64,000 bases of DNA from an uncultured archaeon (GTDB lineage Archaea; Asgardarchaeota; Heimdallarchaeia; Heimdallarchaeales; Heimdallarchaeaceae), in the NCBI GenBank assembly GCA_964534625.1, contig CAZHRF010000003.1, forward strand, positions 65,486 to 129,485, written 5' to 3'. Of the stretch, positions 4,066 through 61,660 are shown piece after piece. The notes beneath the pieces were generated by a model. The model was not told where the DNA came from. It was given only the letters and a program-made list of their open reading frames with translations, and ran no database searches. The first letter of the stretch is position 1; each line of letters opens with the position of its first letter. The position numbers were made by a program, and so were the translations under genes.

Positions 4066-4403
4066 CCTCCGACTGAAATCGCCCATAGAACCTGTAGTTC
4101 GACCTCACGTCAGAAGCCGTTTCCACCTTATCAGCTCCACACCGATTATTACGTGCATCACACATCGTTCTTAGGGGTGCTTACTTCCGTACCTAACCCA
4201 TTTTGAACTAAACCTTTCTAATGCTCCCCTCCGGGAACACCTCTGGTTTGCGCAATCTCGTAAGTCGATGCTTCAACGCGTACTAAGGAAGGCGTATCTT
4301 TCCTCAGTAAGGCCTCGGCAACAGTATTCGTCCCAGCATATAGAGCGTTTCTGGTTATAGGGTAGCCCTAACACCCCGACTAGTTTTCTACCGATTTCAG
4401 TTG
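4066..4403 (-). ncRNA. Signal recognition particle RNA (archaeal 7S/SRP RNA)
   Basis: GC-rich (about 50%) island in AT-rich DNA.
- Helix-8-like motif on the minus strand: GGUAC-GGAA-GUAAGCACC (4176-4193), a GGAA tetraloop followed by AGCA, close to the E. coli 4.5S sequence GGUCCGGAAGGAAGCAGCC.
- Helix-6-like CCC-GGAG-GGG (4226-4235), the same GGAG tetraloop as human helix 6.
- GCUGAU follows helix 8.
- The 5' and 3' ends pair: 4392-4401 is the reverse complement of 4072-4081.
- A TTATAA TATA-like box lies about 25 nt upstream on the minus strand (4423-4428).
Ends are approximate. Confidence 0.75.
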
Positions 4404-7250: not shown

Positions 7251-7422
7251 AGCATTCCACAATTTTTCCTTTTTATTTGAATCTATTTTTTAGATTGTCT
7301 TATTGTCAAAACCTTTATTTTACAAAAAAGTATTATACACGCTATTATAGTCGTTAAACCAAATCTTTTTTATATTCTTCAAACTCTTCTAAATTAGTCT
7401 TGAGTTGATAGAGTAGATAACC

Positions 7423-7932
7423 ATGTGTGAAAATTGTAAAGAGCTTAACAAAATTTTGAATACTCAACTTCCAGATAAGCTCATTGATAAAATTTCTAAG
7501 GTTGAAAGAAACCATTTTGACATAGAGACGACTCCTGATAAAGCTTATAATCTAATGAAGTTCCTTCATGAAGAAGTTGGCATTTACTTTTTAAGTACAG
7601 TTTCAGGTTTCGAGGAGAAAGATCACTTAAGTGCTTGTTATCATGTTATGCACAGAAATGAACAAGATGAAACTGAAATTCCCATCAATTTTTATGTTTT
7701 AGGTATAGACAAGGAAAAACCTATAACGCCCTCAATGTGTGATTTTTTTATCAGTGCTGATTATTACGAGCGCGAGATTCATGATTTTTTTGGTATAGTC
7801 TTTGAGGGTCATCCCTATTTAGAACGAATAATTCTTCCTGAGGATTGGCCTTCAGATATTTATCCATTACGTAAAGAATATTCTTGGCAAGAATTAAAAG
7901 AGAAAGCAGAGGAGATAGTTAGAAATGAATAA
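7423..7932 (+). CDS. Group-4 [NiFe] hydrogenase subunit, NuoC/30-kDa-like
   Basis: YYEREIHDFFGIVFEGHP matches the NuoC/HycE-N/MbhK signature (ERExxDxFGxxFxGHP). It overlaps the next gene by 8 nt. Confidence 0.8.
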   Translation: MCENCKELNKILNTQLPDKLIDKISKVERNHFDIETTPDKAYNLMKFLHEEVGIYFLSTVSGFEEKDHLSACYHVMHRNEQDETEIPINFYVLGIDKEKPITPSMCDFFISADYYEREIHDFFGIVFEGHPYLERIILPEDWPSDIYPLRKEYSWQELKEKAEEIVRNE

Positions 7933-9184
7933 AGAATTTCGCTCAAAATTTCGAATGGATCCTTATGGAAAAGGGGATGAACCCGAGGGGAGCGACTATA
8001 AGATTTTTGTTGGTCCTCAACATCCTTGGGCTGAAGAAGCTTGCAGATTTATCATACATTTAAAAGGTGAGGTTGTATCAGAAGCAGATATACGTATTGG
8101 CTTCAGTTTTAGAGGTATTGAAAAAGCAATGGAAAATAGAACATGGGTGCAAAACATCATGTTAGTTCCTCGTGCTTGTGGTATCTGTGGCGCCGTACAT
8201 CAAACTGTCTATGTACATGTCATTGAGGCTCTTGCGGGCGTAACCGAAAAAATATCCGATAGAGCGCGCTATATAAGAATGATATCTCTAGAAGCTGAAC
8301 GCATTCATAGTCATATGTTATGGTATGGCATATTAGCTCATGATGCGGGTTTCGATACTCTATTCCACATCGCTTGGAGAGATAGAGAAATAATAATGGA
8401 TATTATGGAAGACATAGGCGGGAATAGAGTCCATTATAGTCTTTCTTTACCTGGTGGTACTAGAAGAGATATAGATGCTACAAAAATTAAAAGAAATCTA
8501 GAAAAATTAAAAGAATTAGAGAAACAGGTATTATATCATAAGCGCGTATATGAGGAAGAAGCGACACTAAGAGATCGTATCGCCGGTTTAGGTAGATTGT
8601 CAAAAAAAGATGCAGAATTATTGAATTGCGTTGGTCCCAATGCCAGAGGGTCGGGTGTTCCTTATGATGTAAGAAAAGCATATCCCTATGAACTTTATGA
8701 TAAAATAGATTGGAAACCGGTTTATTATACGGGGGGAGAACCTTATGACGTGGGTTTAACACGACTAGATGAAGTTTTAGAGTCTATCAATATTATGAGA
8801 CAATGTTTTGATGCTTTAGAAACAGAGCATGGTGAAACGCTCATAAAAGTCAGCAATAGACTGCCAGAGGGGCGACACATATCTAGAGCTGAAGCTCCAA
8901 GAGGTGAAGACATACATTTTGGCATAGCAAATGGAACAGACACACTTGATAGATATAAAATAAGATCACCTTCTTTAGCTAATATAGATGCTACACTAAA
9001 GAGATTAGATGGAGAATATATAGCAGATGTACCTGTAATTTTAAGAACATATGATCCTTGTTTCTCTTGTACAAATAGGATCCTTTTAATAAAGGAAGAT
9101 ACTAATGAGAAGATGCTTCTAACTCAAGATGAATTTGCTAGAAAAGCGACAATGGCAAAGAAGTATAACAGGAGATTTTTCTAA
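7925..9184 (+). CDS. [NiFe] hydrogenase large subunit, group 4 (NuoD-like)
   Basis: N-terminal Ni-binding motif RACGICGAVH and C-terminal DPCFSCTNR match the group-4 L1/L2 patterns. A 33-aa extension follows the CxxC-xx-R site, as in substrates of HycI-type proteases. Confidence 0.9.
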   Translation: MNKEFRSKFRMDPYGKGDEPEGSDYKIFVGPQHPWAEEACRFIIHLKGEVVSEADIRIGFSFRGIEKAMENRTWVQNIMLVPRACGICGAVHQTVYVHVIEALAGVTEKISDRARYIRMISLEAERIHSHMLWYGILAHDAGFDTLFHIAWRDREIIMDIMEDIGGNRVHYSLSLPGGTRRDIDATKIKRNLEKLKELEKQVLYHKRVYEEEATLRDRIAGLGRLSKKDAELLNCVGPNARGSGVPYDVRKAYPYELYDKIDWKPVYYTGGEPYDVGLTRLDEVLESINIMRQCFDALETEHGETLIKVSNRLPEGRHISRAEAPRGEDIHFGIANGTDTLDRYKIRSPSLANIDATLKRLDGEYIADVPVILRTYDPCFSCTNRILLIKEDTNEKMLLTQDEFARKATMAKKYNRRFF

Positions 9185-9187
9185 CAG

Positions 9188-9691
9188 GTGGAAAAGATGG
9201 AAAAAAAACAAAAGAGACCTAAAAAGAAACTATTAACAATGGGAGCAGAAGCAATTAAAAATCAAGCTTTGGGCCCCGTAACAATGCATGTACTAGAAAG
9301 AATAGAAAAACATCCACCACCAGAAGATATCCGCGGATTACCCAAAATAATTGAAGATCGGTGTATCTTATGTGCCACTTGTGTTCGGGTTTGTCCAACA
9401 CATTGTCTAGAAATAGAGAAGGCAAAAGGAAGAGAAGGAAAAGACAATGGAATGATATGGATCCTTCGTCCGCAATGTATGGTGTGTGGAAATTGCCAAA
9501 CATATTGTCCAACAGATGCAATTATAGTAAATGGGGGAGAATGGTTAAGTGCAACATTTGATTTACACCATGATTATGAGATTTTAGTGGCAAAAGGTAC
9601 CTACAAAGAAAAGGTAAAAGAAAAAATGGAACAATTACGAAAACAAGGCGATGAAGTTGAAAAAGGGAGAAAGGCATTTAGAGGAGAATAA
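9188..9691 (+). CDS. 2x[4Fe-4S] ferredoxin-like hydrogenase subunit (NuoI/MbhN-like)
   Basis: Two CxxCxxCxxxCP motifs (CILCATCVRVCP and CMVCGNCQTYCP). GTG start at 9188, or ATG at 9197. Confidence 0.8.
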   Translation: MEKMEKKQKRPKKKLLTMGAEAIKNQALGPVTMHVLERIEKHPPPEDIRGLPKIIEDRCILCATCVRVCPTHCLEIEKAKGREGKDNGMIWILRPQCMVCGNCQTYCPTDAIIVNGGEWLSATFDLHHDYEILVAKGTYKEKVKEKMEQLRKQGDEVEKGRKAFRGE

Positions 9692-9703
9692 GGAGGAAAA
9701 AAA

Positions 9704-10225
9704 TTGAAACTTGCAGAAAAAATAGCCTGGAAAGCGAGATTAAAATCTCCATGGATAATACATTTCAACTCAGGAGGCTGTAATGGTTGCGATATCGAAA
9801 TAGTAGATATGCTAACACCAAGGCATGATATCGAACAATATGGAATGTTACTAAAAGGAACACCAAGACAAGCTGACATATTGGTGTGCACAGGTCCAGT
9901 AACAGTACAGGTGGCAAAAAGATTAAAGAGAATATATGAGCAAATGCCAGAACCAAAGTTTGTAGTGGCAATAGGAAATTGTGCAACGACAGGAGGAGTA
10001 TTCCAAGAATGCCCATTTGTTATGGGAGGTATAGATAAAATATTACCTGTTTCAGCTTGGGTATATGGATGTCCCCCCCGTCCAGAAGCTATGATCGCCG
10101 CGATTGCAAAATTGTTGGCTAAAGCCGAAGAAGATATGCTAGGGATTAAGGAGAACAGTAAGGAAAACGATAATAGAAATGTTACCGAACCCAAAAATAT
10201 TCATGAACACAAAAAACAAGAATAA
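9704..10225 (+). CDS. [NiFe] hydrogenase small subunit, group 4 (NuoB-like)
   Basis: GGCNGCD, CTGPV, GNCATTGG and GCPPRPE supply the NuoB-type four-Cys cluster ligands. TTG start preceded by AGGAGG. Confidence 0.85.
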   Translation: MKLAEKIAWKARLKSPWIIHFNSGGCNGCDIEIVDMLTPRHDIEQYGMLLKGTPRQADILVCTGPVTVQVAKRLKRIYEQMPEPKFVVAIGNCATTGGVFQECPFVMGGIDKILPVSAWVYGCPPRPEAMIAAIAKLLAKAEEDMLGIKENSKENDNRNVTEPKNIHEHKKQE

Positions 10226-48734: not shown

Positions 48735-50741
48735 TTATCTCACAAGCATTTTCTCTAATTCACGTATTTTATCACGAAATACTGCTGCTTTTTCAAAATT
48801 CAACTCACCAGCAGCTTCTGCCATTCTTTCTTTTAGATCATCAATCATAAATGAGATGTCTTGAATTGTTATATCAGGGGGTAAAGACAAATCATCAGGT
48901 TTTTTCTCTCTTGCTGTTACATCCATTAAAGTTTCTACAATTGATCTTACTTCAGTTCGTACTGTCTGTGGTTCAATGTTATTTTTTCTGTTGAAATCCA
49001 ATTGTATTTGTCTCCGTCTATTATTTTCTGAAATAGCTTCTTTCATAGCTTCTGTTAACTCTGAAGCATAAAGTATGACACTCCCATGTACATTTCTACT
49101 TGCACGGCCCATTAACTGAATTAAGGAACGTTTTGATCGGAGGAACCCTTGTTTATCTGCATCGAGAATAGCCACCAAACTCACTTCAGGTAAATCAAGT
49201 CCCTCCCTGAGCAGATTAATTCCAACAACCACGTCATGTTTCCCTAATCTTAAATCACGTAAGATATCAATCCGATCAAGTGTATCTACTTCATGATGAA
49301 GATATATGGATTTTACTCCCATATCGATTAAGTAATCAGATAATTCCTCTGCCATTTTTTTAGATAAGGTAGTAACAAGAGACCGTTCTCCCTTTTTAGA
49401 ACGCATGTTTATCTCACTTAACAAATTGTCTATTTGTCCCTCTATCCCCCTAATTTCTATTTTGGGATCTACTAAACCAGTGGGCCTGTTTATTTGTTCT
49501 ACAATTGCATCTGAATGTTCCCGTTCATAAGATCCAGGAGTTGCACTTGTAAAAATTACGGTGTTCATGTATAATTCAAATTCATCAAAACGCAAAGGTC
49601 TATTATCAATAGCAGAGGGTAAACGAAAACCAAAGTCTACCAAATTCTTCTTTCGCGCATAATCTCCACGATGCATTCCCCTTAGCTGTGGTATAGTGAG
49701 ATGAGATTCATCAATAACTAATAGAAAATCAGAAGGAAAATGATCAAGAAGAGTAAATGGTGGATCACCAGCTACTCTATGATCAAAATGTCTAGAGTAA
49801 TTTTCCATACCAGGACAATAACGAACTTCTTTCAACAATTCTAGATCATATAAAGTACGTTGTCTTAAACGATGTGCTTCAATGTTTTTTCCTGCTTTCT
49901 TTAAGCTATATAATCTTTCGTTAAGTTCATTTTCAATTGAATCTATAGCTTCATCAAATAAATTGTCATTAGTTAAATAATGAATACCCGGATAAATATC
50001 CAAACTATTGAATTCACGGATCATTTCATTAGTAATGGGATGACGAGCAGTAATACGGTCTATTTCATCTCCAAAAAATTCGATACGATATATATTTGAT
50101 CCATACAAAGGATAAATATCAATTGTATCACCTCTTACCCTAAATGACCTTCGTTCAAGAACAGTGTCGTTTCTATTATATTGATTTAAGACTAGTTGCA
50201 TTAACAAATCTTGTCTATCTAAAGTGCTCCCCGTTTGAAGATATATTCTTTTATTTCTGTAAAGATTAGGATCACCAACACTATAAATGCATGAGACAGT
50301 TGCACAAACGATTACATCATCTCTAGTTGCCAACGCCTCAGTTGTAGAATGCCTAAGGCGGTCTATTTCTTCATTGATGCTAAAATCTTTTTCAATATAC
50401 AAGTCTTTAGCAGGGAGATATGATTCTGGTTGATAGTAATCATAAAAACTTACAAAATACTCTACTCTAGCTGATGGAAACAGTGATTTGAATTCGCCAT
50501 AAAGTTGTGCTACCAAAGTTTTGTTTGGCCCTACTACTAAAGTTGGTTTCTTAACTTTATCAATTACTTGTGCTATTGTGTACGTTTTTCCGCTTCCTGT
50601 AACACCTAGTAATGTTTGTTTCTTGTAATCCTGTGCTGTTATTCCTTCAACAAGTTTCCGAATCGCCTTAGGTTGATCTCCTTTTGGTTCTAAATTTGTT
50701 TGTATAGTTAATGGCATTCTTATTCCACGTACTTTGGTCAT
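48735..50741 (-). CDS. uvrB: Excinuclease ABC subunit B
   Basis: GDQPKAI, Walker A GVTGSGKT, DESH box, helicase motifs and the C-terminal UVR domain (FEKAAVFRDKIRELE). The start is possibly the internal ATG at 50717. Confidence 0.9.
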   Translation of the reverse strand: MTKVRGIRMPLTIQTNLEPKGDQPKAIRKLVEGITAQDYKKQTLLGVTGSGKTYTIAQVIDKVKKPTLVVGPNKTLVAQLYGEFKSLFPSARVEYFVSFYDYYQPESYLPAKDLYIEKDFSINEEIDRLRHSTTEALATRDDVIVCATVSCIYSVGDPNLYRNKRIYLQTGSTLDRQDLLMQLVLNQYNRNDTVLERRSFRVRGDTIDIYPLYGSNIYRIEFFGDEIDRITARHPITNEMIREFNSLDIYPGIHYLTNDNLFDEAIDSIENELNERLYSLKKAGKNIEAHRLRQRTLYDLELLKEVRYCPGMENYSRHFDHRVAGDPPFTLLDHFPSDFLLVIDESHLTIPQLRGMHRGDYARKKNLVDFGFRLPSAIDNRPLRFDEFELYMNTVIFTSATPGSYEREHSDAIVEQINRPTGLVDPKIEIRGIEGQIDNLLSEINMRSKKGERSLVTTLSKKMAEELSDYLIDMGVKSIYLHHEVDTLDRIDILRDLRLGKHDVVVGINLLREGLDLPEVSLVAILDADKQGFLRSKRSLIQLMGRASRNVHGSVILYASELTEAMKEAISENNRRRQIQLDFNRKNNIEPQTVRTEVRSIVETLMDVTAREKKPDDLSLPPDITIQDISFMIDDLKERMAEAAGELNFEKAAVFRDKIRELEKMLVR

Positions 50742-50829: not shown

Positions 50830-51591
50830 TTAATTCTTAGAAACAGGGAAGTAAACAGGAAATATAAGGTTACTGAAGTTATTATACATTTCGGGTCTAT
50901 ATGACGCTTCTTCTAGTAAAACTTCTAACTTGATTATCTCAAATTCCGTATAACCTTTCATTTTTGGAAAGTTAGCTGGATTGCCATGGTCTAATATTTT
51001 TTTTATGATTTCACCAAGTTCTGTTAGCTCAACATAAGACTCAAATAACAGATGAATATGAGTGGTTAAGCCATCTAATTGCTTCTCTTCTTCAACAGAG
51101 TTAGATATCCTCACTACAGAAAGAATAGCTGCACGCCTAGTAATGTAATCTTTTGCGTAAACTACTTTACTAAGGGAAGAAAGTACATCTACATCATCAA
51201 GAAACCCTATCGCCCTAATTGCTGCATATTGTAAATCATATCCACTTCCTTCTAAAACACTCAAAAAATAAGGTTTTGATGAGTAGGCTTTTAATTTGCC
51301 TAAGATCTCTAAAACAGCTATTTTTACTCCAAGTGAACTTTCTTGTAAAATATCATGAAGATTATCTAAAACATCATTTTTAACTTTCGGTGTTCTTTTC
51401 ACTAAATCAATTATAGTCTGAGCACCAGCATTTCTCACATTCCAATTACTATCCTTAAGTAGTGAATATAAGATCCATAAGTCATTTTCGGATCCATTAT
51501 TTTTTAGAAATAATGCTACTTTTATTCTAGCTAAAGGATCATCATTCTTTCTCTTTGGTAATACAAACAATCTTTTTATGAAACTAAACAA
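50830..51591 (-). CDS. HEAT-repeat protein (PBS-lyase-type repeats)
   Basis: Repeated xxVRxxAAxxLGxL-like units (NWNVRNAGAQTIIDL, LGVKIAVLEILGKL, LQYAAIRAIGFL, YITRRAAILSVVRI). Last gene of the cassette, overlapping the upstream gene by 8 nt. Confidence 0.7.
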   Translation of the reverse strand: MFSFIKRLFVLPKRKNDDPLARIKVALFLKNNGSENDLWILYSLLKDSNWNVRNAGAQTIIDLVKRTPKVKNDVLDNLHDILQESSLGVKIAVLEILGKLKAYSSKPYFLSVLEGSGYDLQYAAIRAIGFLDDVDVLSSLSKVVYAKDYITRRAAILSVVRISNSVEEEKQLDGLTTHIHLLFESYVELTELGEIIKKILDHGNPANFPKMKGYTEFEIIKLEVLLEEASYRPEMYNNFSNLIFPVYFPVSKN

Positions 51592-53137
51592 AGTACATCC
51601 CCTCTTTAATCAGATATTTAATTGCCCTTCTTTGTGGTTGACTTAGATCATTCAAATACGTATAATCTATTCGATTAACATCTACTTTCTCTTCTTTTTC
51701 TTCATCCAACTCAAAATCGTAAGCATCTCTCCTTTTTGACACATGTACAGCTCTTGTAATCACAGGTAGATTATAAGGAGACAAAGGTTCTTTCCCTTTC
51801 TTATGTACTGCAAATAGACTAGCAATATGTAAACCAGTTATTTTTCTAAAAAGAACAATATCAGCGAATGCAGGTAATATTGTACGAAAATCATCACGAT
51901 AGAGACTAGAGTGATTGTGGAGGATAACTAGTTGATCTAATCCCACACCATGTTCATCTATTTCAAACACATGAACTTTTTTCTCGTCAACCCTTACATA
52001 ACCTTTAAAACTTATTTTGGGTTTATAATCATGTAATTGCCCAAAAGTTGAGAATTTACGTCGATATGTGGTTTTTGCATAATCTTCTAGCTCTCTCCAT
52101 TTATATGCATATACGGACCAAACATCTGTCCAATTAGTTCTTGAAGTATGCCATTCTTCAATTACAGACTCGGAATGTTTATTATTTTCTGTTGCTAGTA
52201 TATTTTTTATAACATCATAGGAGAATTCTTCAAGAAGTTCTAAATCGGTCTTATAATTGAATAATTTCTTGAATAATATTTTTTCAGTTTCTACTTGTTT
52301 TAATAAACGTTGTATAAGAGCATAACTTAAAATGCCAACAGGAGGCGCCATAAGCGGTTTAAGCCCTTTTGGATATTTTTTAAATTCATAATCATCAAGT
52401 ATGGTTGTCAAAAATTTGTTTTTGATGTAATGAGCAAAACCCTCTTCTATCAGAATATGATTGTGTTTCTTTCGCGCGATTTTTGCTCTTTCTTTGAGAA
52501 GATTTATTGCTTCAATAGAAAAGTTATTGAACAGAGTAATATCTCGAGCTTCATCTGGGGGAATATAAAAATCATCTATGCCACTTTCTGTGAATAAACG
52601 TATTATACCTATTAAATCTTGAAAATATTGCCATGCCCATAAATATCCTCTATTACTTATTTTGTTCATTTTGTAAACATTATTGGACATCAATTCTTTT
52701 AATATAACATCAATTTGATACAATCTCGACATTATTTTAACTGAATTTGATTCAGTTTTTTCATTCATATACGCATGAGCAAGTGCATGAACCAACTCTG
52801 TTCTTAATATAAACTCTTTTTCTTTATTTAGCTCTCGGTAAGGTACTGTAAGATATATAATAGTAGGTAATGAGTTAAAAATTGTTTTTTTATCTGTAGG
52901 AAGAAAATCTTGCAATCTTGCTGATCTAAGATGATTTACTTCTTCTGCAGTTAAAATTGCTTGAGGCGTTCCTGCGCTATCTATTATCCGATTGACAGAA
53001 ACTTGTATATCAGGGTTATTAAAAATCAAGATACGATATTCTTCAGGGCACTCACCAAGAATAGTGTATATGTCTTTTCGCGCTTGTTGATGTACGGTTT
53101 CTATTTGTCCTAGTTCTATGCTCATCAATCTATTCAT
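51584..53137 (-). CDS. Unknown 517-aa protein of the AAA+/vWA cassette
   Basis: Intact ORF translationally coupled on both sides by 8-nt overlaps. No family recognised. His-rich patches (HALAHAY, ILHNHSS) do not fit zincin or JAMM spacing. Confidence 0.6.
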   Translation of the reverse strand: MNRLMSIELGQIETVHQQARKDIYTILGECPEEYRILIFNNPDIQVSVNRIIDSAGTPQAILTAEEVNHLRSARLQDFLPTDKKTIFNSLPTIIYLTVPYRELNKEKEFILRTELVHALAHAYMNEKTESNSVKIMSRLYQIDVILKELMSNNVYKMNKISNRGYLWAWQYFQDLIGIIRLFTESGIDDFYIPPDEARDITLFNNFSIEAINLLKERAKIARKKHNHILIEEGFAHYIKNKFLTTILDDYEFKKYPKGLKPLMAPPVGILSYALIQRLLKQVETEKILFKKLFNYKTDLELLEEFSYDVIKNILATENNKHSESVIEEWHTSRTNWTDVWSVYAYKWRELEDYAKTTYRRKFSTFGQLHDYKPKISFKGYVRVDEKKVHVFEIDEHGVGLDQLVILHNHSSLYRDDFRTILPAFADIVLFRKITGLHIASLFAVHKKGKEPLSPYNLPVITRAVHVSKRRDAYDFELDEEKEEKVDVNRIDYTYLNDLSQPQRRAIKYLIKEGMYFV

Positions 53138-54572
53138 CTCCCGTTATACTTTGTTTCAAGATTTGTACTCCCAAGGATTTTATCTCTGCTGGATCCACTA
53201 ATATAGGATCTGTTATTCCTTTTAACATTTGCTTAGTCTGGATGTAAATCTCTTTTTTCTTTAGTGACTTTGGCCCCATCAAGAAATATCCAATATTCCA
53301 GTTTCTGGTTTTGTCATTTATCAAAGAACTAAATAAAGCATTTAACTGTATCATACATTCAATAGTCTCTGGTTTTGTTTTAGTATCAATCCTAGAAAAA
53401 TATTTTTTTAAGGTTCTATTTGTCTTGTATTCAAATGGAAATATAGGTACATTTGGCATACCATCAGTAAGTATTGTTAATTGTACATCTATATTTTTGT
53501 ATTTATATTGTTCTTTTGCGTGTGCAATTGCTTCTTTAACAGCTTGAATCATATATGTTTTTCCTTTAGCGTCTGCACTAAGGAGAAAATCTTCCATTTT
53601 CTGATGATTGTCTATAACTTTAGGGGTTTGTCTTATTGGCACAACAGCCAGTTTAAACATGTCATGTTTTTTACGTTTTCTTCTGTTTTGGAGTTTAAAA
53701 TAATAGTAGAGAGCTAAAGAGGTGAGTAATGCTCCATCCAACCGGCTCATTCCACCTTCAAAAACCGTTTTTCGCATGCTTTGACTTAAATCCACAATAA
53801 AGTAGACTAATGCAGTTCTATCTTTTTTTACTCTAATAATATCTTCTTGTTTAACACTGGTAGGTGGTATCTTCTGTGAAGCGAGTACTGCACTTTTATA
53901 AGTCTCCCGCATTTTGATTAAACCACGTGGTCTTTTTTGTTTTTCATCAATTGGGGATATAGAGATTTGTTTTACTAGATGATGACCAAGAATGTTACCT
54001 AAAACATCCATTACGCTCTCTCTTGAAAGTCTCTTCTTTCGACCATATGCATCTGTTATTTCTAAATCTGCTATATCTGTTAAATCTTGTAATTTTTCAG
54101 CTAACCCATGAAGGTCAAAGTTGCCCTCATATTTGACTGATTTCAATAGTTCTTGAATATATTTCAATATATCCTCAATCGTTTGCAGTTCGTTTCTATT
54201 AACTTTTTCAAGAACTTCCGGTAAAACGCGTTCCCCAACAAACCGCAACAACCTTAGTTCATTAACTAATCTCTTTTCTTCTTCAGCAGATAAAGGAGTT
54301 GTGACTATTTTTTCTATTATATTATCTATTGCTACAGCATTTTTTGATGCCATAGAAAGTACAGCCCCTTCTCTTGAACTACGACCGAGATGAGGATTTC
54401 TCCATAATCTCAAAAGTTGTGCTGCATTTTCAAAGTCCAATATGAATTCAGCTTCCCCATAATTTTGTAGAGGGTCTCTGAAATCTGATTCTGTCATATA
54501 GTGAAGTCTTTTATCCATTTTAATCATCACTCTCCCAAGAGAGTTTATTTGAAGATTGTTAGATATATTCAA
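53130..54572 (-). CDS. von Willebrand factor A (vWA) domain protein with an intact MIDAS
   Basis: The C-terminal half has VYFIVDLSQSM (DxSxS), GKTYM (Thr) and TILTDGMPN (Asp), the full MIDAS set. The ~250-aa helical N-terminal region is of unknown type. Confidence 0.75.
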   Translation of the reverse strand: MNISNNLQINSLGRVMIKMDKRLHYMTESDFRDPLQNYGEAEFILDFENAAQLLRLWRNPHLGRSSREGAVLSMASKNAVAIDNIIEKIVTTPLSAEEEKRLVNELRLLRFVGERVLPEVLEKVNRNELQTIEDILKYIQELLKSVKYEGNFDLHGLAEKLQDLTDIADLEITDAYGRKKRLSRESVMDVLGNILGHHLVKQISISPIDEKQKRPRGLIKMRETYKSAVLASQKIPPTSVKQEDIIRVKKDRTALVYFIVDLSQSMRKTVFEGGMSRLDGALLTSLALYYYFKLQNRRKRKKHDMFKLAVVPIRQTPKVIDNHQKMEDFLLSADAKGKTYMIQAVKEAIAHAKEQYKYKNIDVQLTILTDGMPNVPIFPFEYKTNRTLKKYFSRIDTKTKPETIECMIQLNALFSSLINDKTRNWNIGYFLMGPKSLKKKEIYIQTKQMLKGITDPILVDPAEIKSLGVQILKQSITGDE

Positions 54573-56106
54573 CCCTTAAGATATTCTCGTACGAGTCCTT
54601 TAGTTTTGCAATAATCGCATCCACCACACCTTCTTCTGCTTTTTCAAGGTTCTCATATTGTTTTATTAACTCCGCTAATTCTTCATCACTTAAAGCTTTC
54701 ATTTTTGAGATATCTTCAGATATATCTTTTACATTCACTGCCACATCTGAATCTTTTATATTTGCACGTAATCTTATTTTGATTTCTTGAATAGCATCAT
54801 TTACCATAGAAGAAGGTATATCATAAGCATCCATTGTTTTTCTCACACGTTCAAGTGTTACTACATTAATGTCATCCTCACTATCAAGTTTTTGTAAAAT
54901 GATAGTTTCTCCAAGAATGTTATTTAAGGTTCTTAGATCTAGATGAGGATTTCTCTGCGGGTCGTGTATTTCGTCCAATCCCGAATAAAAATCACTTCTA
55001 GCCACACGGCTTTCGGATCTTAAAGTTTTTGTCTTCAAAGTCTCAGGTAATGAGATGTTACTCAGGAATGCCAAAAATTCAGCAGCTAATCTACTAACAT
55101 AATCTGTTGTTTCCCGCTCTAACTGATGGAGTTGAATAATTGAAGGATTGGCAGTTATTTTTCGTTGTGATAAAATGATTTGCTCGTTAAACATATCTTT
55201 AACAATTTGTACGCGACTATCCAAAGCACGGGCAGGCCACAATACTTCGGGGATACGATTAATGATGGGCTGACTTTCTTCTCCAAATACAGTTAATGGT
55301 GCGTTTGAAGTAAATATAACAGCACCATCGACATAAACAGGTTCACCTTGTATATTATATTTGATACCCATGGGATCTTCAAGAAAACCCATCAAGGCCT
55401 CTAATACGGATAACGGAAGACGTTGTATTTCGTTTACAACAAGAAAACCTCGCGATAAAACACCCACTTTATGAGATGTTGCAGCATAAGTTGTCTTTGT
55501 TTCTTTCCCGAATAATTCTTCTAAGTTTTCTACACCAGCTAAAAGCATGTAAAGGCTTTCAGGGTCCGTCCTAGGATCTAATTGGGCGCGTCTTACAATT
55601 GTTTTTTCTACTTCAAGATCATTCAAACGTGAAATTAAATCGTTTGGGGATATTTTTAGTACACTATTTGTATTATCCAATTGAACAACTCCGTTAGTAG
55701 AGAGTGTTTTTTCAATATTGCTTCTACAGAAAGGACAAAGTGATTGTAAAACTTTAATGGCACCAAAAGTGTTAGTTTGAATCTTTGAAAGAACATCAAT
55801 TATATAACCAGAATCTTCTAAAAATGGACAACCTGCGATATGATACTTATGATTGTTAGTTTCCGTAACAATATGATCTAACAATACTCGGGCAAAAAGC
55901 GTTTTTGCTTCTCCTGTTGGACCTGTGATGAGTACTTTTCCACCCACAGCCAGTTTATCCATAACTAAATTTTTTGCTTTTTCATTACCTCTAACAGAAA
56001 CATCATTCAATACGCGTTTTCTGAAATCAGCATTCATCAAAATAGAACGTACAGAATATCCTTTATAACCTTCATTTATTAAATCTTTAATTGTGGGCAT
56101 ATTCAT
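54559..56106 (-). CDS. AAA+ ATPase, MoxR/ChlI (helix-2-insert) clade, with atypical motifs
   Basis: Walker A-like GPTGEAKT (compare RavA GPPGIAKS). The Walker B region FLVVNEIQRLPLSVLEALMGFLED parallels MoxR LLADEINRAPxKxQSALLEAMQE but has N in place of D. A ~150-aa insert with H-x3-C...C-x2-C sits between the two motifs, reminiscent of the GCPF...CxxC inserts of ChlI homologues. Confidence 0.7.
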   Translation of the reverse strand: MNMPTIKDLINEGYKGYSVRSILMNADFRKRVLNDVSVRGNEKAKNLVMDKLAVGGKVLITGPTGEAKTLFARVLLDHIVTETNNHKYHIAGCPFLEDSGYIIDVLSKIQTNTFGAIKVLQSLCPFCRSNIEKTLSTNGVVQLDNTNSVLKISPNDLISRLNDLEVEKTIVRRAQLDPRTDPESLYMLLAGVENLEELFGKETKTTYAATSHKVGVLSRGFLVVNEIQRLPLSVLEALMGFLEDPMGIKYNIQGEPVYVDGAVIFTSNAPLTVFGEESQPIINRIPEVLWPARALDSRVQIVKDMFNEQIILSQRKITANPSIIQLHQLERETTDYVSRLAAEFLAFLSNISLPETLKTKTLRSESRVARSDFYSGLDEIHDPQRNPHLDLRTLNNILGETIILQKLDSEDDINVVTLERVRKTMDAYDIPSSMVNDAIQEIKIRLRANIKDSDVAVNVKDISEDISKMKALSDEELAELIKQYENLEKAEEGVVDAIIAKLKDSYENILRVEYI

Positions 56107-56151: not shown

Positions 56152-56757
56152 TTAATTATTATCTTCATCATCAATAATTAAATCTACTTTTCTTGGACCA
56201 AGTGATTCAATTAATTCTTCTTTAATTTCCCAAGATTTAAGGTAACCCATTCGTATGACTTTTTTTAACCAATTCAATACGGTTAGTAAATTGTTAGAAT
56301 CCTGAGTTTCTCCTGTTTCAAACAGTTCCCAGAGATGATCACTAAGGCGTATCAATGACAGATTTTCTATAAGTTCAGCTCGGGATAAAGATCCTTGTAT
56401 ATGTGAGTTATATGCACAGATAGCAATTGGTAACGATTTAGTGCTTTCATTCCAACATATTTTTTCCCAAAAGAAGTTCCGTTCATGTTTAATCATTTCT
56501 TCTTTAGTAGCATCAATAAAGTAAAGAATACCTTCAAAAGGTAAGAAATGATTAGAATGAAATGAGAAAGTTTCTGGGGCTGGTAATTCAACTAAAGAAT
56601 CATCAAGAATATATGTGTCAAGATCAGCGTGTGCTTTTAGTACTAGAGTTCGGTTACGGGTAGCAGAATTATCATCACCAAGAATAAGTATAGAAACTTC
56701 AGGATAACCTAATTTACGCTTAATGGTTTTGATGAAAGATTGAACTGCGTTAGTCAT
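56152..56757 (-). CDS. Arf/Arl-like small-GTPase-fold protein lacking all nucleotide-binding motifs (predicted pseudo-GTPase)
   Basis: Collinear with human ARF1, aligned by hand from memory.
- ILILGDDNSATRNRTLV aligns with ILMVGLDAAGKTTILY.
- GILYFIDATKEE aligns with GLIFVVDSNDRE.
- PIAICAYNSHIQGSLSRAELIENLSL aligns with [25 protein letters not shown].
- WELFETGETQDSNNLLTVLNWL aligns with [21 protein letters not shown].
G1, G3, G4 and G5 are all substituted. Confidence 0.6.
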   Translation of the reverse strand: MTNAVQSFIKTIKRKLGYPEVSILILGDDNSATRNRTLVLKAHADLDTYILDDSLVELPAPETFSFHSNHFLPFEGILYFIDATKEEMIKHERNFFWEKICWNESTKSLPIAICAYNSHIQGSLSRAELIENLSLIRLSDHLWELFETGETQDSNNLLTVLNWLKKVIRMGYLKSWEIKEELIESLGPRKVDLIIDDEDNN

Positions 56758-57600: not shown

Positions 57601-57710
57601 GGGGTGGTGATCTAGCTCGGCTATGATATCTCCTTGACGAAAATCATAGGTGCGACCTATAGTTTTCAGAATGGAGAAGGTCGCAAGTTCAAATCTTGCT
57701 CACCCCACCA
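57601..57710 (+). tRNA. tRNA-Val (anticodon GAC) with a 32-nt intron at 37/38, 3' CCA encoded
   Basis: Hand fold. Acceptor GGGGUGG/UCACCCC, anticodon stem UCUCC/GGAGA, loop UUGACG then an intron (about 57640-57671, containing the hairpin AUAGGU-GCG-ACCUAU), T arm GCAAG-UUCAAAU-CUUGC, discriminator A, then CCA. Confidence 0.85.
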
Positions 57711-57730: not shown

Positions 57731-58183
57731 TTAAGTTGAAAGTATTTTTCTTACTTCTTCTGATAATCCTGCAACATTTTTTATATCAATCGCCATAAGT
57801 TTCAATAAGTCTTCGGGTGCTCTCCTTAACTCATAAATTGTTTCTATCCATTCTTCTAACATCTCATTATCTATATGGGAATCTTTTATAACTGTCCTTA
57901 CAGCCACTATCTTTTGTTTTTTTGGTACATTAGGCTCTTCTAACAATACTGCTGTTGCCCACATATTTAAAATTGAACGTATTTCTTTATTCAAATTAGT
58001 TTTGCAATCAAATGCTTTTGAAAATAGTTTTTTTTTCTCTTCAACCAAAGCTCTTGTTAGTGTTATTCGCTTTCCTAGTTTTATTGCATTTTCTTTTGTT
58101 ATATTTTGTTTAAATTCAATCAAAGGGGTGAAGTTCATACCAATCAACACACATATCAGTATATTTATCTTACGCCAATTCAC
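57731..58183 (-). CDS. Hypothetical protein with an N-terminal TM (150 aa)
   Basis: Intact ORF divergent from the GTPase gene. No motif recognised. Confidence 0.4.
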   Translation of the reverse strand: MNWRKINILICVLIGMNFTPLIEFKQNITKENAIKLGKRITLTRALVEEKKKLFSKAFDCKTNLNKEIRSILNMWATAVLLEEPNVPKKQKIVAVRTVIKDSHIDNEMLEEWIETIYELRRAPEDLLKLMAIDIKNVAGLSEEVRKILST

Positions 58184-58280
58184 ATTAAATTGCTCTAATA
58201 CACCAAATTCTATTTGTGAAATTAATTATTCATTTATCACAAACCTAAGATTTTTTATCATTAAATTACATCTTGTAATT

Positions 58281-58808
58281 ATGTCAAAAAAACCTCAGTA
58301 TCTCAAGAAGATAGTTATGCTTGGGGATGGTGGTGTTGGTAAAACCTCTTTAGTGAAGCGTTTTAAGACCGGTCAATTCAATCCAGCTTATCTTATTACT
58401 TTAGGGGCTTCCATTACAAAAAAAGAAATTGATTTTGATCATTGTTTGGTAACACTAGCAATTTGGGATATTGGAGGTCAAGAGATGTTCCAAAAAGTTC
58501 ATTCCAAATATTTTATTGGATCTGAAGGCGCTTTAGCTGTTTGTGATGTTACTGATTTTACTTCTTTTCAGAATTTATCCAATTGGATAAAATCATTTCG
58601 TAAAGTAGTCGGAGATAAACCAGTTATATTTTTAGCAAACAAAATTGACTTAAAGGATCAGAAAGTTACAGAACACGATATTTCTGCTTTAAGTGCAAAG
58701 TTCTCTAATTCCCAGTTTATATTAACATCAGCTAGAAATGGTACAAATACAAATGAGGCATTTTCTAATATTGCAAGATTAATACTTGATAGCTCAAATA
58801 CAAAATGA
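58281..58808 (+). CDS. Ras-superfamily small GTPase, Rab/Ras-like
   Basis: All G motifs are intact: G1 GDGGVGKTS, switch I TLGASI, G3 WDIGGQE, G4 NKIDL, G5 TSARNG. No C-terminal prenylation Cys. Start set at the ATG at 58281 (MSKKPQYLKKIVMLG); the track ORF from 58002 is a spurious 5' extension. Confidence 0.85.
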   Translation: MSKKPQYLKKIVMLGDGGVGKTSLVKRFKTGQFNPAYLITLGASITKKEIDFDHCLVTLAIWDIGGQEMFQKVHSKYFIGSEGALAVCDVTDFTSFQNLSNWIKSFRKVVGDKPVIFLANKIDLKDQKVTEHDISALSAKFSNSQFILTSARNGTNTNEAFSNIARLILDSSNTK

Positions 58809-61559: not shown

Positions 61560-61660
61560 TGGCGCCGCCCGCAGGACTTGAACCTGCGACCTTACGGTTT
61601 CTGCATACAATGAAAAATGGTTTTAACAGCCGTATGCTCTACCGACTAAGCTAGGGCGGC
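61560..61660 (-). tRNA. tRNA-Asn (anticodon GUU) with a 25-nt intron at 37/38, 3' CCA encoded
   Basis: Hand fold of the minus strand. Acceptor GCCGCCC/GGGCGGC, D arm GCUU-AGUCGGUA-GAGC, anticodon stem UACGG/CCGUA, loop CUGUUA then the intron, T arm GCAGG-UUCAAGU-CCUGC, discriminator G, then CCA. Confidence 0.85.

Follow-up and report, generated by a model that had tools for sequence, protein, structure and literature searches.

A conserved Arf-fold protein without GTP-binding motifs heads a five-gene AAA+/vWA operon in Heimdallarchaeia

Introduction

The Arf GTPases of Asgard archaea are under intense study, as forerunners of eukaryotic membrane traffic. Among them, the ArfR/AArf proteins, including HodArfR1 (Protein Data Bank (PDB) entries 8OUK and 8OUL) and GerdArfR1 (8OUM and 8OUN), have intact G boxes, switches and interswitch toggle, and bind GTP or GDP (10.1101/2024.02.28.582541; PMC11914678). 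ArfR proteins attach to membranes via an N-terminal amphipathic helix (bioRxiv 10.1101/2024.02.28.582541). Here, we describe pArf, a protein of an uncultured archaeon from the family Heimdallarchaeaceae, which has the Arf fold and an equivalent helix but none of the GTP-binding motifs. The pArf gene lies in a stretch of 64,000 nucleotides (GenBank assembly GCA_964534625.1, contig CAZHRF010000003.1, positions 65,486 to 129,485 of the forward strand), which we call the window. Coordinates are those of the window unless a related locus is named. A first-pass annotation, generated by a model, had proposed that pArf is a pseudo-GTPase with an Arf/Arl fold.

Apart from pArf, pseudo-GTPases are, to our knowledge, essentially a eukaryotic phenomenon. 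Examples are CENP-M, whose partner CENP-I is a HEAT-type repeat protein, and the pG1 and pG2 domains of p190RhoGAP. Pairing of pArf with the HEAT-repeat protein described below would parallel CENP-M and CENP-I. All of these domains have a small GTPase fold from which the G motifs have been lost, as in pArf (PMC4080450, PMC10211241), and CENP-M is reported to drive assembly and stability of a multi-subunit complex (PMC4080450). CENP-M provides a eukaryotic precedent for a pseudo-GTPase scaffold, to which pArf may be functionally analogous. Conversely, pArf differs from CENP-M and the p190RhoGAP domains in its independent origin; it is archaeal, Arf-derived, has a putative membrane-binding helix and is encoded alongside AAA+ and vWA partners.

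MoxR-type AAA+ proteins also have known pairings with vWA proteins. These include RavA-ViaA, CbbQ-CbbO, NorQ-NorD, CoxD-CoxE, the Mg-chelatase subunits ChlI-ChlD, and midasin. We know of no such pair with an Arf-like protein. MoxR-vWA pairs function as chaperone and co-chaperone; the metal ion-dependent adhesion site (MIDAS) captures an acidic client peptide, and the AAA+ ring remodels or releases it (PMC7159879). There are also vWA-MoxR ternary conflict systems, with diversified architecture and variable effector domains fused to the vWA protein or to the third component (PMC7159879), unlike the fixed cassette headed by pArf.

Hence, the Arf family, pseudo-GTPases and AAA+/vWA pairs are each known, but we found no published description of their combination. 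Papers concerning ArfR/AArf (Vargova et al., 10.1101/2024.02.28.582541; PMC11914678) deal only with proteins having intact G boxes, and the pArf group is not mentioned in the text. Similarly, 0 of 6 pArf family accessions were found in the searchable part of the preprint's supplementary tables, although this is not conclusive. Full-text searches concerning archaeal pseudo-GTPases returned only two general papers, one reviewing pseudoenzymes and the other dealing with noncatalytic functions of kinases, while those for an Asgard Arf/AAA/vWA operon returned nothing relevant.

Results and discussion

pArf belongs to the Arf family

With E<=1 as the limit, pArf matches a single Pfam family, Arf (PF00025, E 5.2e-6, 26.5 bits; cut-off 22.3), and the match is confined to residues 68-167. 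Similarly, phmmer searches of PDB sequences matched Arl3, the Asgard 'Arf GTPase' 8OUK/8OUL, Arf3, Arl8 and Arl1, through the C-terminal half only. When a profile of the pArf family was aligned with a profile of 16 canonical Arfs, using hhalign, the match had a probability of 98.95 %, an E-value of 1e-17 and covered 169 columns. In this alignment the hydrophobic blocks ILILG, ILYFID, IAICA and LNWL, which the first-pass annotation had listed as retained, correspond to β1, β4, β5 and α5.

Structure prediction and a Foldseek search, which the annotation had suggested as a check, gave the same answer. The AlphaFold2 (AF2) model has a GTPase fold, with a predicted local distance difference test score (pLDDT) of 85.9 and a predicted template modelling (TM) score of 0.83. 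Note that this model required an alignment of 99 sequences, with distant subfamilies included; using 24 close orthologues alone, pLDDT was 35 and the model unusable. Each of the 50 best Foldseek matches in the PDB was an Arf or Arl protein (TM 0.6-0.7). The best (8OUL, E 6e-8, TM 0.62/0.66) was HodArfR1-GDP, a protein of an Asgard archaeon of the Hodarchaeales. Predicted secondary structure elements are in Table 1.

We conclude that derivation of pArf from the Arf family is well supported, and that the protein retains both the Arf fold and the Arf-specific α4-β6 signature. The signature is also found in ArfR/AArf proteins, which share the Heimdallarchaeia neighbourhood and have an N-terminal amphipathic helix lacking the myristoylation residue Gly2, as does pArf. 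Compared to eukaryotic Arf and Arl proteins (PF00025; for example Arl3 (5DI3), Arf1 and Arl1), pArf has the same fold, similarity in the C-terminal half and a profile match of ~170 columns. The differences are the lack of GTP-binding motifs, a switch region shorter by 15 residues, and the addition of a C-terminal helix (residues 176-186) followed by a tail.

The GTP-binding motifs are replaced or deleted

The profile alignment was used to locate each GTP-binding motif. At G1, canonical GLDNAGKT is opposite G27-DDNSATR34, with T33 in place of the Lys and R34 in place of the Thr. The column of the G2 switch-I Thr is occupied by D52. Further along, G3 (WDxGGQ) and the preceding interswitch strand have been deleted, rather than substituted. 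Thus, there is a gap of 12 columns opposite NIRFLMWDLGGQ, and 3 more columns are missing just after, making the switch region ~15 residues shorter than that of Arf. What remains stands in for switch I, the β2-β3 interswitch, WDxGGQ and α2. In the AF2 model, a single strand (E49-53, pLDDT >90) is found between α1 and β4, with no β2-β3 hairpin. At G4, canonical ANKQD is opposite A115-YNSH119; close orthologues have A-Y-N-(S/T) at the NKxD position, and N117 is invariant. Finally, canonical C-C-A-L of G5 is opposite T148-G-E-T151.

The first-pass annotation had described the same replacements in the P-loop, in NKQD and in the SA(T/K) region (given as ETGE), and these assignments stand. It was mistaken in two respects. 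First, pArf is not collinear with ARF1 over the whole length, given the deletion of 12 and 3 residues in the switch region. Second, HSNH is not a substituted DVGGQ. Instead, H67-SNHF71 pairs with WKTYY, at the end of switch II/α2, and phmmer agrees, pairing the segment with YWRNYF of Arl3.

A regular-expression scan for GxxxxGK[ST], DxxG and [NT]KxD, at the expected positions, found none in any of ~110 family members. Most canonical Arf matches that look full-length do carry G motifs in the same scan. pArf thus lacks all the elements on which canonical GTP binding and the Arf interswitch toggle depend, and neither binding nor hydrolysis of GTP in the canonical way is predicted from its sequence.

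Motif loss is common to a family, and pArf is under purifying selection

An initial search identified 40 full-length orthologues, with 51-97 % identity to pArf, and the nearest relatives were all from Heimdallarchaeota metagenome-assembled genomes (MAGs). When 1.84 billion cluster representatives were then searched exhaustively with a profile, there were 81 matches. Those better than ~1e-9 are more of the short Arf-like proteins that lack G motifs, and canonical Arfs are not encountered until ~4e-8. A second search, with a widened alignment, recovered 100 family members. In total, the family has ~110 motif-less relatives, almost exclusively from Heimdallarchaeota MAGs. Similarly, a scan of one genome per species in the Genome Taxonomy Database (GTDB) identified 41 species-level loci with pArf, nearly all labelled Heimdallarchaeota.

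The relatives form three subfamilies. Members of subfamily 1, including pArf itself, have 192-202 residues, an N-terminal amphipathic helix, the P-loop sequence GDxxPATRNR and an acidic C-terminal tail, which is restricted to this group. Proteins in subfamily 2 are ~170-190 residues long, start MFKKQKPPKHILF, lack the helix and have a polybasic C-terminal tail (+4 to +8). Those in subfamily 3 have ~155-190 residues, an aromatic N-terminal helix that is also amphipathic, a P-loop shortened to R-(I/V)-G-K-(A/T) and a tail of mixed charge. The switch region is ~12 residues shorter still in the other subfamilies. G1 lesions differ between subfamilies, which suggests that the nucleotide site was already free of constraint in a common ancestor.

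One possibility is that pArf binds a phosphate ligand non-canonically, be it a nucleotide, lipid head group or phosphopeptide, and so remains a ligand-controlled switch. The site would comprise T33-R34-N35-R36, at the old P-loop, together with D52, and be specific to subfamily 1. In the 24 close orthologues, R34, N35, R36 and D52 are invariant. They occupy the exact former phosphate site; the R34-N35-R36 sequence starts at the last P-loop residue, within the pattern G-(D/N)-x-x-P-A-T-R-N-R. Furthermore, AF2 is confident about the loop that takes the place of the switch region, and some pseudo-GTPase domains do bind nucleotide (PMC10211241). However, subfamilies 2 and 3 have the same operon but do not conserve these residues. 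The G4 and G5 determinants of guanine specificity are also gone, and G3 is deleted. We consider a phosphate-dependent switch quite unlikely.

Next, consider whether pArf could be a decaying duplicate of an Arf-like gene, or have G motifs that were simply misaligned. In favour of decay, conservation of the N-terminal half is poor in the wider family. Conversely, 41 species-level genomes have an intact reading frame, there are ~110 relatives, the C-terminal half is highly conserved and synteny is kept. Comparing pArf with its 97 %-identical orthologue (locus L051), there are 23 synonymous and 7 non-synonymous differences. This equates to dS of 0.205, dN of 0.015 and dN/dS of 0.073, which is indistinguishable from values for the four operon partners (0.064-0.132). 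Misalignment fares no better, since the profile alignment leaves no place for a hidden G1, G3 or G4, settling a doubt that the first-pass annotation had raised about its own hand alignment. Hence, both explanations are refuted, and we give them next to no credence. The same annotation had asked whether motif loss is conserved. It is and, because the loss is common to ~110 relatives and the pArf gene evolves under purifying selection, comparative analysis shows pArf to be a conserved and selected Heimdallarchaeia protein, best described as a functional pseudo-GTPase and not a product of decay.

Conservation is concentrated in α3, the G4 loop, α4, β6 and α5, with the N-terminal half being variable. 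Residues W97, L124, E131, S134, L135, R137, D140 and W163 are invariant; in the case of E131, S134, L135, R137 and D140, this covers 99 sequences. At least 85 % conservation is seen for R93, F96, E98, W102, G122, the L133-R141 block, F146 and E147. Most prominent is a signature block in α4 and the α4-β6 loop (E131-N-L-S-L-I-R-L-S-D-H141 in pArf; consensus ExLSLIRLTDR). The conserved half of the family therefore consists of α3 (R93/F96/W97/E98/W102), this block, β6 (F146/E147) and α5 (W163/L164).

Occurrence of pArf throughout Heimdallarchaeia shows that conversion of small GTPases to pseudoenzymes was already under way in the archaea most closely related to eukaryotes. Note that databases currently label this gene as hypothetical, or as an 'ADP-ribosylation factor-like protein', as if its product were a working GTPase. 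Such labels are unfit for counting functional Arf switches in Asgard genomes.

pArf heads a fixed five-gene operon

The pArf gene is followed, on the same strand, by genes encoding an AAA+ ATPase that resembles the MoxR/sigma54-activator type, a vWA protein, a 517-residue protein that we call X517, and a HEAT-repeat protein (Table 1). Adjacent genes are separated by ~40-45 nt, with 45 nt between pArf and the AAA+ gene, or overlap by 8 nt. This tight arrangement suggests that pArf is co-transcribed with the four downstream genes. With the sole exception of L049 (discussed below), every related locus that extends far enough downstream has the order pArf-AAA-vWA-X517-HEAT, so that pArf does head a cassette, as first annotated. 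In two distant loci, the HEAT gene is too divergent for detection by tblastn. Gene order is kept in all three subfamilies while flanking genes vary, and the architecture is fixed in 40+ loci. Such a strict operon supplies four candidate physical partners. Hence, a relative of an Asgard 'eukaryotic signature' protein becomes testable, which is rare for uncultured organisms.

Table 1. Positions of pArf, its operon partners and their sequence features in the window
Feature	Position	Strand	Description
pArf operon	56757 down to 50830	minus	Order pArf-AAA-vWA-X517-HEAT
pArf	56152..56757	minus	Operon gene 1; 201-aa Arf-fold pseudo-GTPase; ATG-to-TAA open reading frame
N-terminal basic amphipathic helix	56713..56754	minus	aa 2-15, TNAVQSFIKTIKRK; AF2 helix 2-15
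Degenerate P-loop	56656..56679	minus	aa 27-34, GDDNSATR; hhalign column mapping
Residual switch region	56533..56610	minus	aa 50-75; one strand and loop
G4 remnant	56401..56412	minus	aa 116-119, YNSH replacing NKQD; hhalign mapping
Family signature block	56335..56367	minus	aa 131-141, α4 and α4-β6 loop
Acidic C-terminal tail	56155..56178	minus	aa 194-201, IIDDEDNN; predicted disordered
AF2 elements, N-terminal half of pArf			Helix 2-15; β1 21-28; α1 31-43; single strand 49-53; loop 54-75 (confident)
AF2 elements, C-terminal half of pArf			β4 76-82; α3 86-101; β5 111-116; α4 126-138; β6 143-148; α5 154-169
AF2 C-terminal additions to pArf			Extra helix 176-186, then disordered tail
AAA+ ATPase	54559..56106	minus	Operon gene 2; 515 aa; Pfam Sigma54_activat, AAA_5
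vWA protein	53130..54572	minus	Operon gene 3; complete MIDAS D261xS263xS265...T339...D370
X517	51584..53137	minus	Operon gene 4; 517 aa; start overlaps vWA stop by 8 nt
HEAT-repeat protein	50830..51591	minus	Last operon gene; 253 aa; start overlaps X517 stop by 8 nt; Pfam HEAT_2, E 4e-20

The AAA+ protein has a mean column identity of 72 % among orthologues. Invariant features include the Walker A sequence GPTGEAKT (with Ala for the usual Gly), the sensor-1 residue N268, and R284. Also invariant are C93, C124 and C127, in an insertion of ~110 residues between Walker A and Walker B. Separately, we note that one orthologue matches a Zn-ribbon Pfam model. All 6 orthologues examined match both Sigma54_activat, with a best E-value of 4e-5 that passes the cut-off, and AAA_5, with a best of 4e-4; matches to AAA_5 and Mg_chelatase are below cut-off. 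No match was found among PDB sequences. With MoxR-type pairs, the operon has in common an AAA+ gene adjoining a MIDAS-containing vWA gene, and similarities to AAA_5, Sigma54_activat and VWA_CoxE. The AAA+ protein differs from the MoxR type in its length, cysteine-containing insertion, long helical C-terminal extension and Asn-Glu at Walker B.

In the vWA protein, MIDAS residues D261, S263, S265, T339 and D370 are invariant among orthologues. The true start is probably at Met16-19, and not the listed TTG; orthologues start where Met19 lies, and the protein called in another assembly has 465 residues. The shorter start abolishes the apparent overlap with the AAA+ gene. For X517, there was no match in Pfam, NCBIfam, PADLOC or the PDB, and we recognise no family; a profile search of 5.8 billion proteins found orthologues in Heimdallarchaeota only. 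As a side observation, residues 117-121 of X517 (52775-52789, minus strand) read H-A-L-A-H, within VHALAHAY, resembling an HExxH zincin motif minus the Glu. H117 is invariant in 6 orthologues, and the second His is Lys in locus L008. More generally, nothing interpretable emerged when sequences and profiles of the AAA+, vWA and X517 proteins were searched against PDB, NCBIfam and PADLOC. The repeats of the HEAT protein are of a generic PBS-lyase/alphaRep type, judging from the best PDB matches. A link between Arf and adaptins, by way of an Adaptin_N match to the HEAT protein (E 0.001), was rejected as generic HEAT similarity; AP-3 beta matched with an E-value of only 0.009.

Might the cassette be an archaeal vWA-MoxR 'ternary' conflict (immunity) system, with X517 as the third component and pArf as an accessory sensor or regulator? 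An AAA+/vWA pair alongside a large lineage-specific third protein fits the core logic of such systems, and conflict systems built around GTPases have been described too (PMC7159879). Set against this, the cassette has no effector domain and no meaningful PADLOC match. Rather than showing the typical displacement of effectors and variable architecture, the gene order is fixed in 40+ genomes, and purifying selection acts strongly on each of the five genes. Furthermore, described examples are bacterial (PMC7159879). We regard an immunity role as highly improbable.

Genes flanking the cassette differ between subfamilies. In all nine subfamily-2 loci (L007, L009, L037, L038, L041, L044, L045, L046 and L050), a gene encoding a Roadblock/LC7 protein of 133 residues is directly 3' of the HEAT gene, on the same strand (for example, at 15085-15486 of L007). 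The same nine loci have a gene for a predicted membrane protein, of ~229 residues, divergently upstream of pArf. Neither gene adjoins the cassette in the window. A divergent NUDIX gene is kept beside the cassette in subfamily 1 only.

A putative adaptor or anchor for an AAA+/vWA complex

The N-terminal helix of pArf has a hydrophobic moment (muH) of 0.68, compared with 0.41 for shuffled sequences (p ~0.01), and a net charge of +3, in line with the basic amphipathic segment recognised in the first-pass annotation. The acidic tail that it listed is also present, and AF2 pLDDT values are <50 for residues 192-201. Together, the helix in subfamilies 1 and 3, and the polybasic tail in subfamily 2, suggest that attachment to membranes (or to a polyanion) has been kept. 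We also considered the acidic tail as a family-wide MIDAS ligand. This idea was dropped since tails are polybasic in subfamily 2 and mixed in subfamily 3.

We think it rather probable, on the strength of sequence comparison and synteny, that pArf serves as an Arf-fold adaptor or anchor, independent of nucleotide, in a complex containing the AAA+, vWA, X517 and HEAT proteins. Specifically, pArf would be a structural subunit of a complex assembled around the AAA+/vWA chaperone pair. In the Ras fold, α3 and α4 are neighbours on the same face of the β-sheet. Conservation in the pArf family has shifted to α3, α4 and β6 from the nucleotide and switch face, so we take the former as a putative docking surface. 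Hence, docking to a partner is predicted to occur through this family-invariant α3/α4/β6 face. In the present genome, the N-terminal basic amphipathic helix would tether the complex to the membrane. Attachment would be constitutive, because the toggle that hides the helix in Arf-GDP has been removed. In relatives with no helix, the polybasic C-terminal tail could do the same job. Roadblock domains are partners of small GTPases, as in MglB and Ragulator. The Roadblock/LC7 gene, positioned after HEAT in subfamily-2 loci, is further support for the proposed role.

Several observations weigh against this proposal. First, Walker B of the AAA+ protein is invariantly V-V-N-E (VVNEIQRL), with Asn for Asp, and so the partner may be a slow, regulatory or non-hydrolysing ATPase. 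Second, similarity of the AAA+ protein to MoxR-related Pfam models is weak. Third, Pfam matches of the vWA protein (VWA_2 in 4/6 orthologues, VWA_CoxE in 2/6) are all below the gathering score. Fourth, the family member in L049 has no cassette beside it, and is the only exception to synteny. Finally, the anchoring role may be specific to certain subfamilies, or wrong. With regard to L049, the gene (7764-8294) encodes a subfamily-3 pArf of 176 residues, and none of the four partner genes is nearby in the 16-kb locus.

Instead of being a stable subunit, pArf could be a client or target of the AAA+/vWA machine. The MIDAS would grip the acidic tail, or E131/D140, allowing the AAA+ protein to extract or re-load pArf at the membrane, with this ATP-driven cycle in place of the lost GTP cycle. 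MIDAS sites do bind acidic client peptides (PMC7159879), and pArf has both a disordered acidic tail and invariant acidic residues in a loop predicted to be exposed. Conservation in an operon with the AAA+ and vWA genes, and loss of the switch apparatus while membrane-binding elements were kept, are also consistent with a client. However, there is no acidic tail in subfamilies 2 and 3, that of subfamily 2 being basic, and the 1:1 stoichiometry of the operon suits a subunit equally well. While client and subunit are indistinguishable from sequence data, we judge the client explanation unlikely.

Returning to pArf as an adaptor or anchor, the proposal can be extended to a five-subunit machine. 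In this scenario, pArf would hold a HEAT-solenoid complex on the membrane, with the AAA+ ring cycling it on and off; we see only a slim chance of this. It is similarly doubtful that the GTP switch was traded for an ATP-driven AAA+/vWA partner. In eukaryotes, dynein light intermediate chain and LC7 exemplify the assembly of a pseudo-G-domain and Roadblock protein with an AAA_5-type motor. If it exists, the five-subunit machine would be a prokaryotic, nucleotide-independent counterpart of the arrangement where Arf recruits an α-solenoid adaptor. It would also parallel eukaryotic assemblies of a pseudo-G-domain, Roadblock protein and AAA_5 motor, and so bear on the origin of eukaryotic GTPase-scaffolded complexes.

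Other features of the locus

The first-pass annotation drew attention to a Ras-like GTPase near pArf (58281-58808). The protein is indeed intact (Pfam Ras 6e-40; GDGGVGKT/DIGG/NKID), and is the sole canonical small GTPase in the window, but it says nothing about the cassette. Being absent from nearly all related loci, it was dropped as a candidate part of the pArf system and is an accidental neighbour. The open reading frame listed for this gene (58002-58808, plus strand) has a TTG start and 268 codons; the Ras-like domain runs from the ATG at 58281 (175 aa). A divergent open reading frame of 150 residues, at 57731-58183, had no family match.

In one branch of subfamily 1 (4123-5061 of L004; also L005 and L006), a gene ~5 kb upstream of the cassette encodes a protein of 312 residues that matches the Pfam families Arf, SRPRB, Ras and Roc, and may be an extended paralogue of the canonical ArfR-like kind. 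Downstream of the cassette in L051, UvrB (7268-9928) has 1216 residues, including intein-splicing and LAGLIDADG domains. The UvrB of the window (48735-50741, minus strand) has 668 residues and no intein. Rfam models identify tRNAs at 57601-57707 (plus strand, 107 nt) and 61563-61660 (minus strand, 98 nt), but ARAGORN found no tRNA between 55000 and 64000. The two tRNAs are probably of the archaeal intron-containing type. Finally, the window is archaeal, with a G+C content of ~32 % and an archaeal SRP RNA. The latter is full-length (RF01857, 101 bits; 4083-4393, minus strand) and confirms that the DNA is from an archaeal chromosome.

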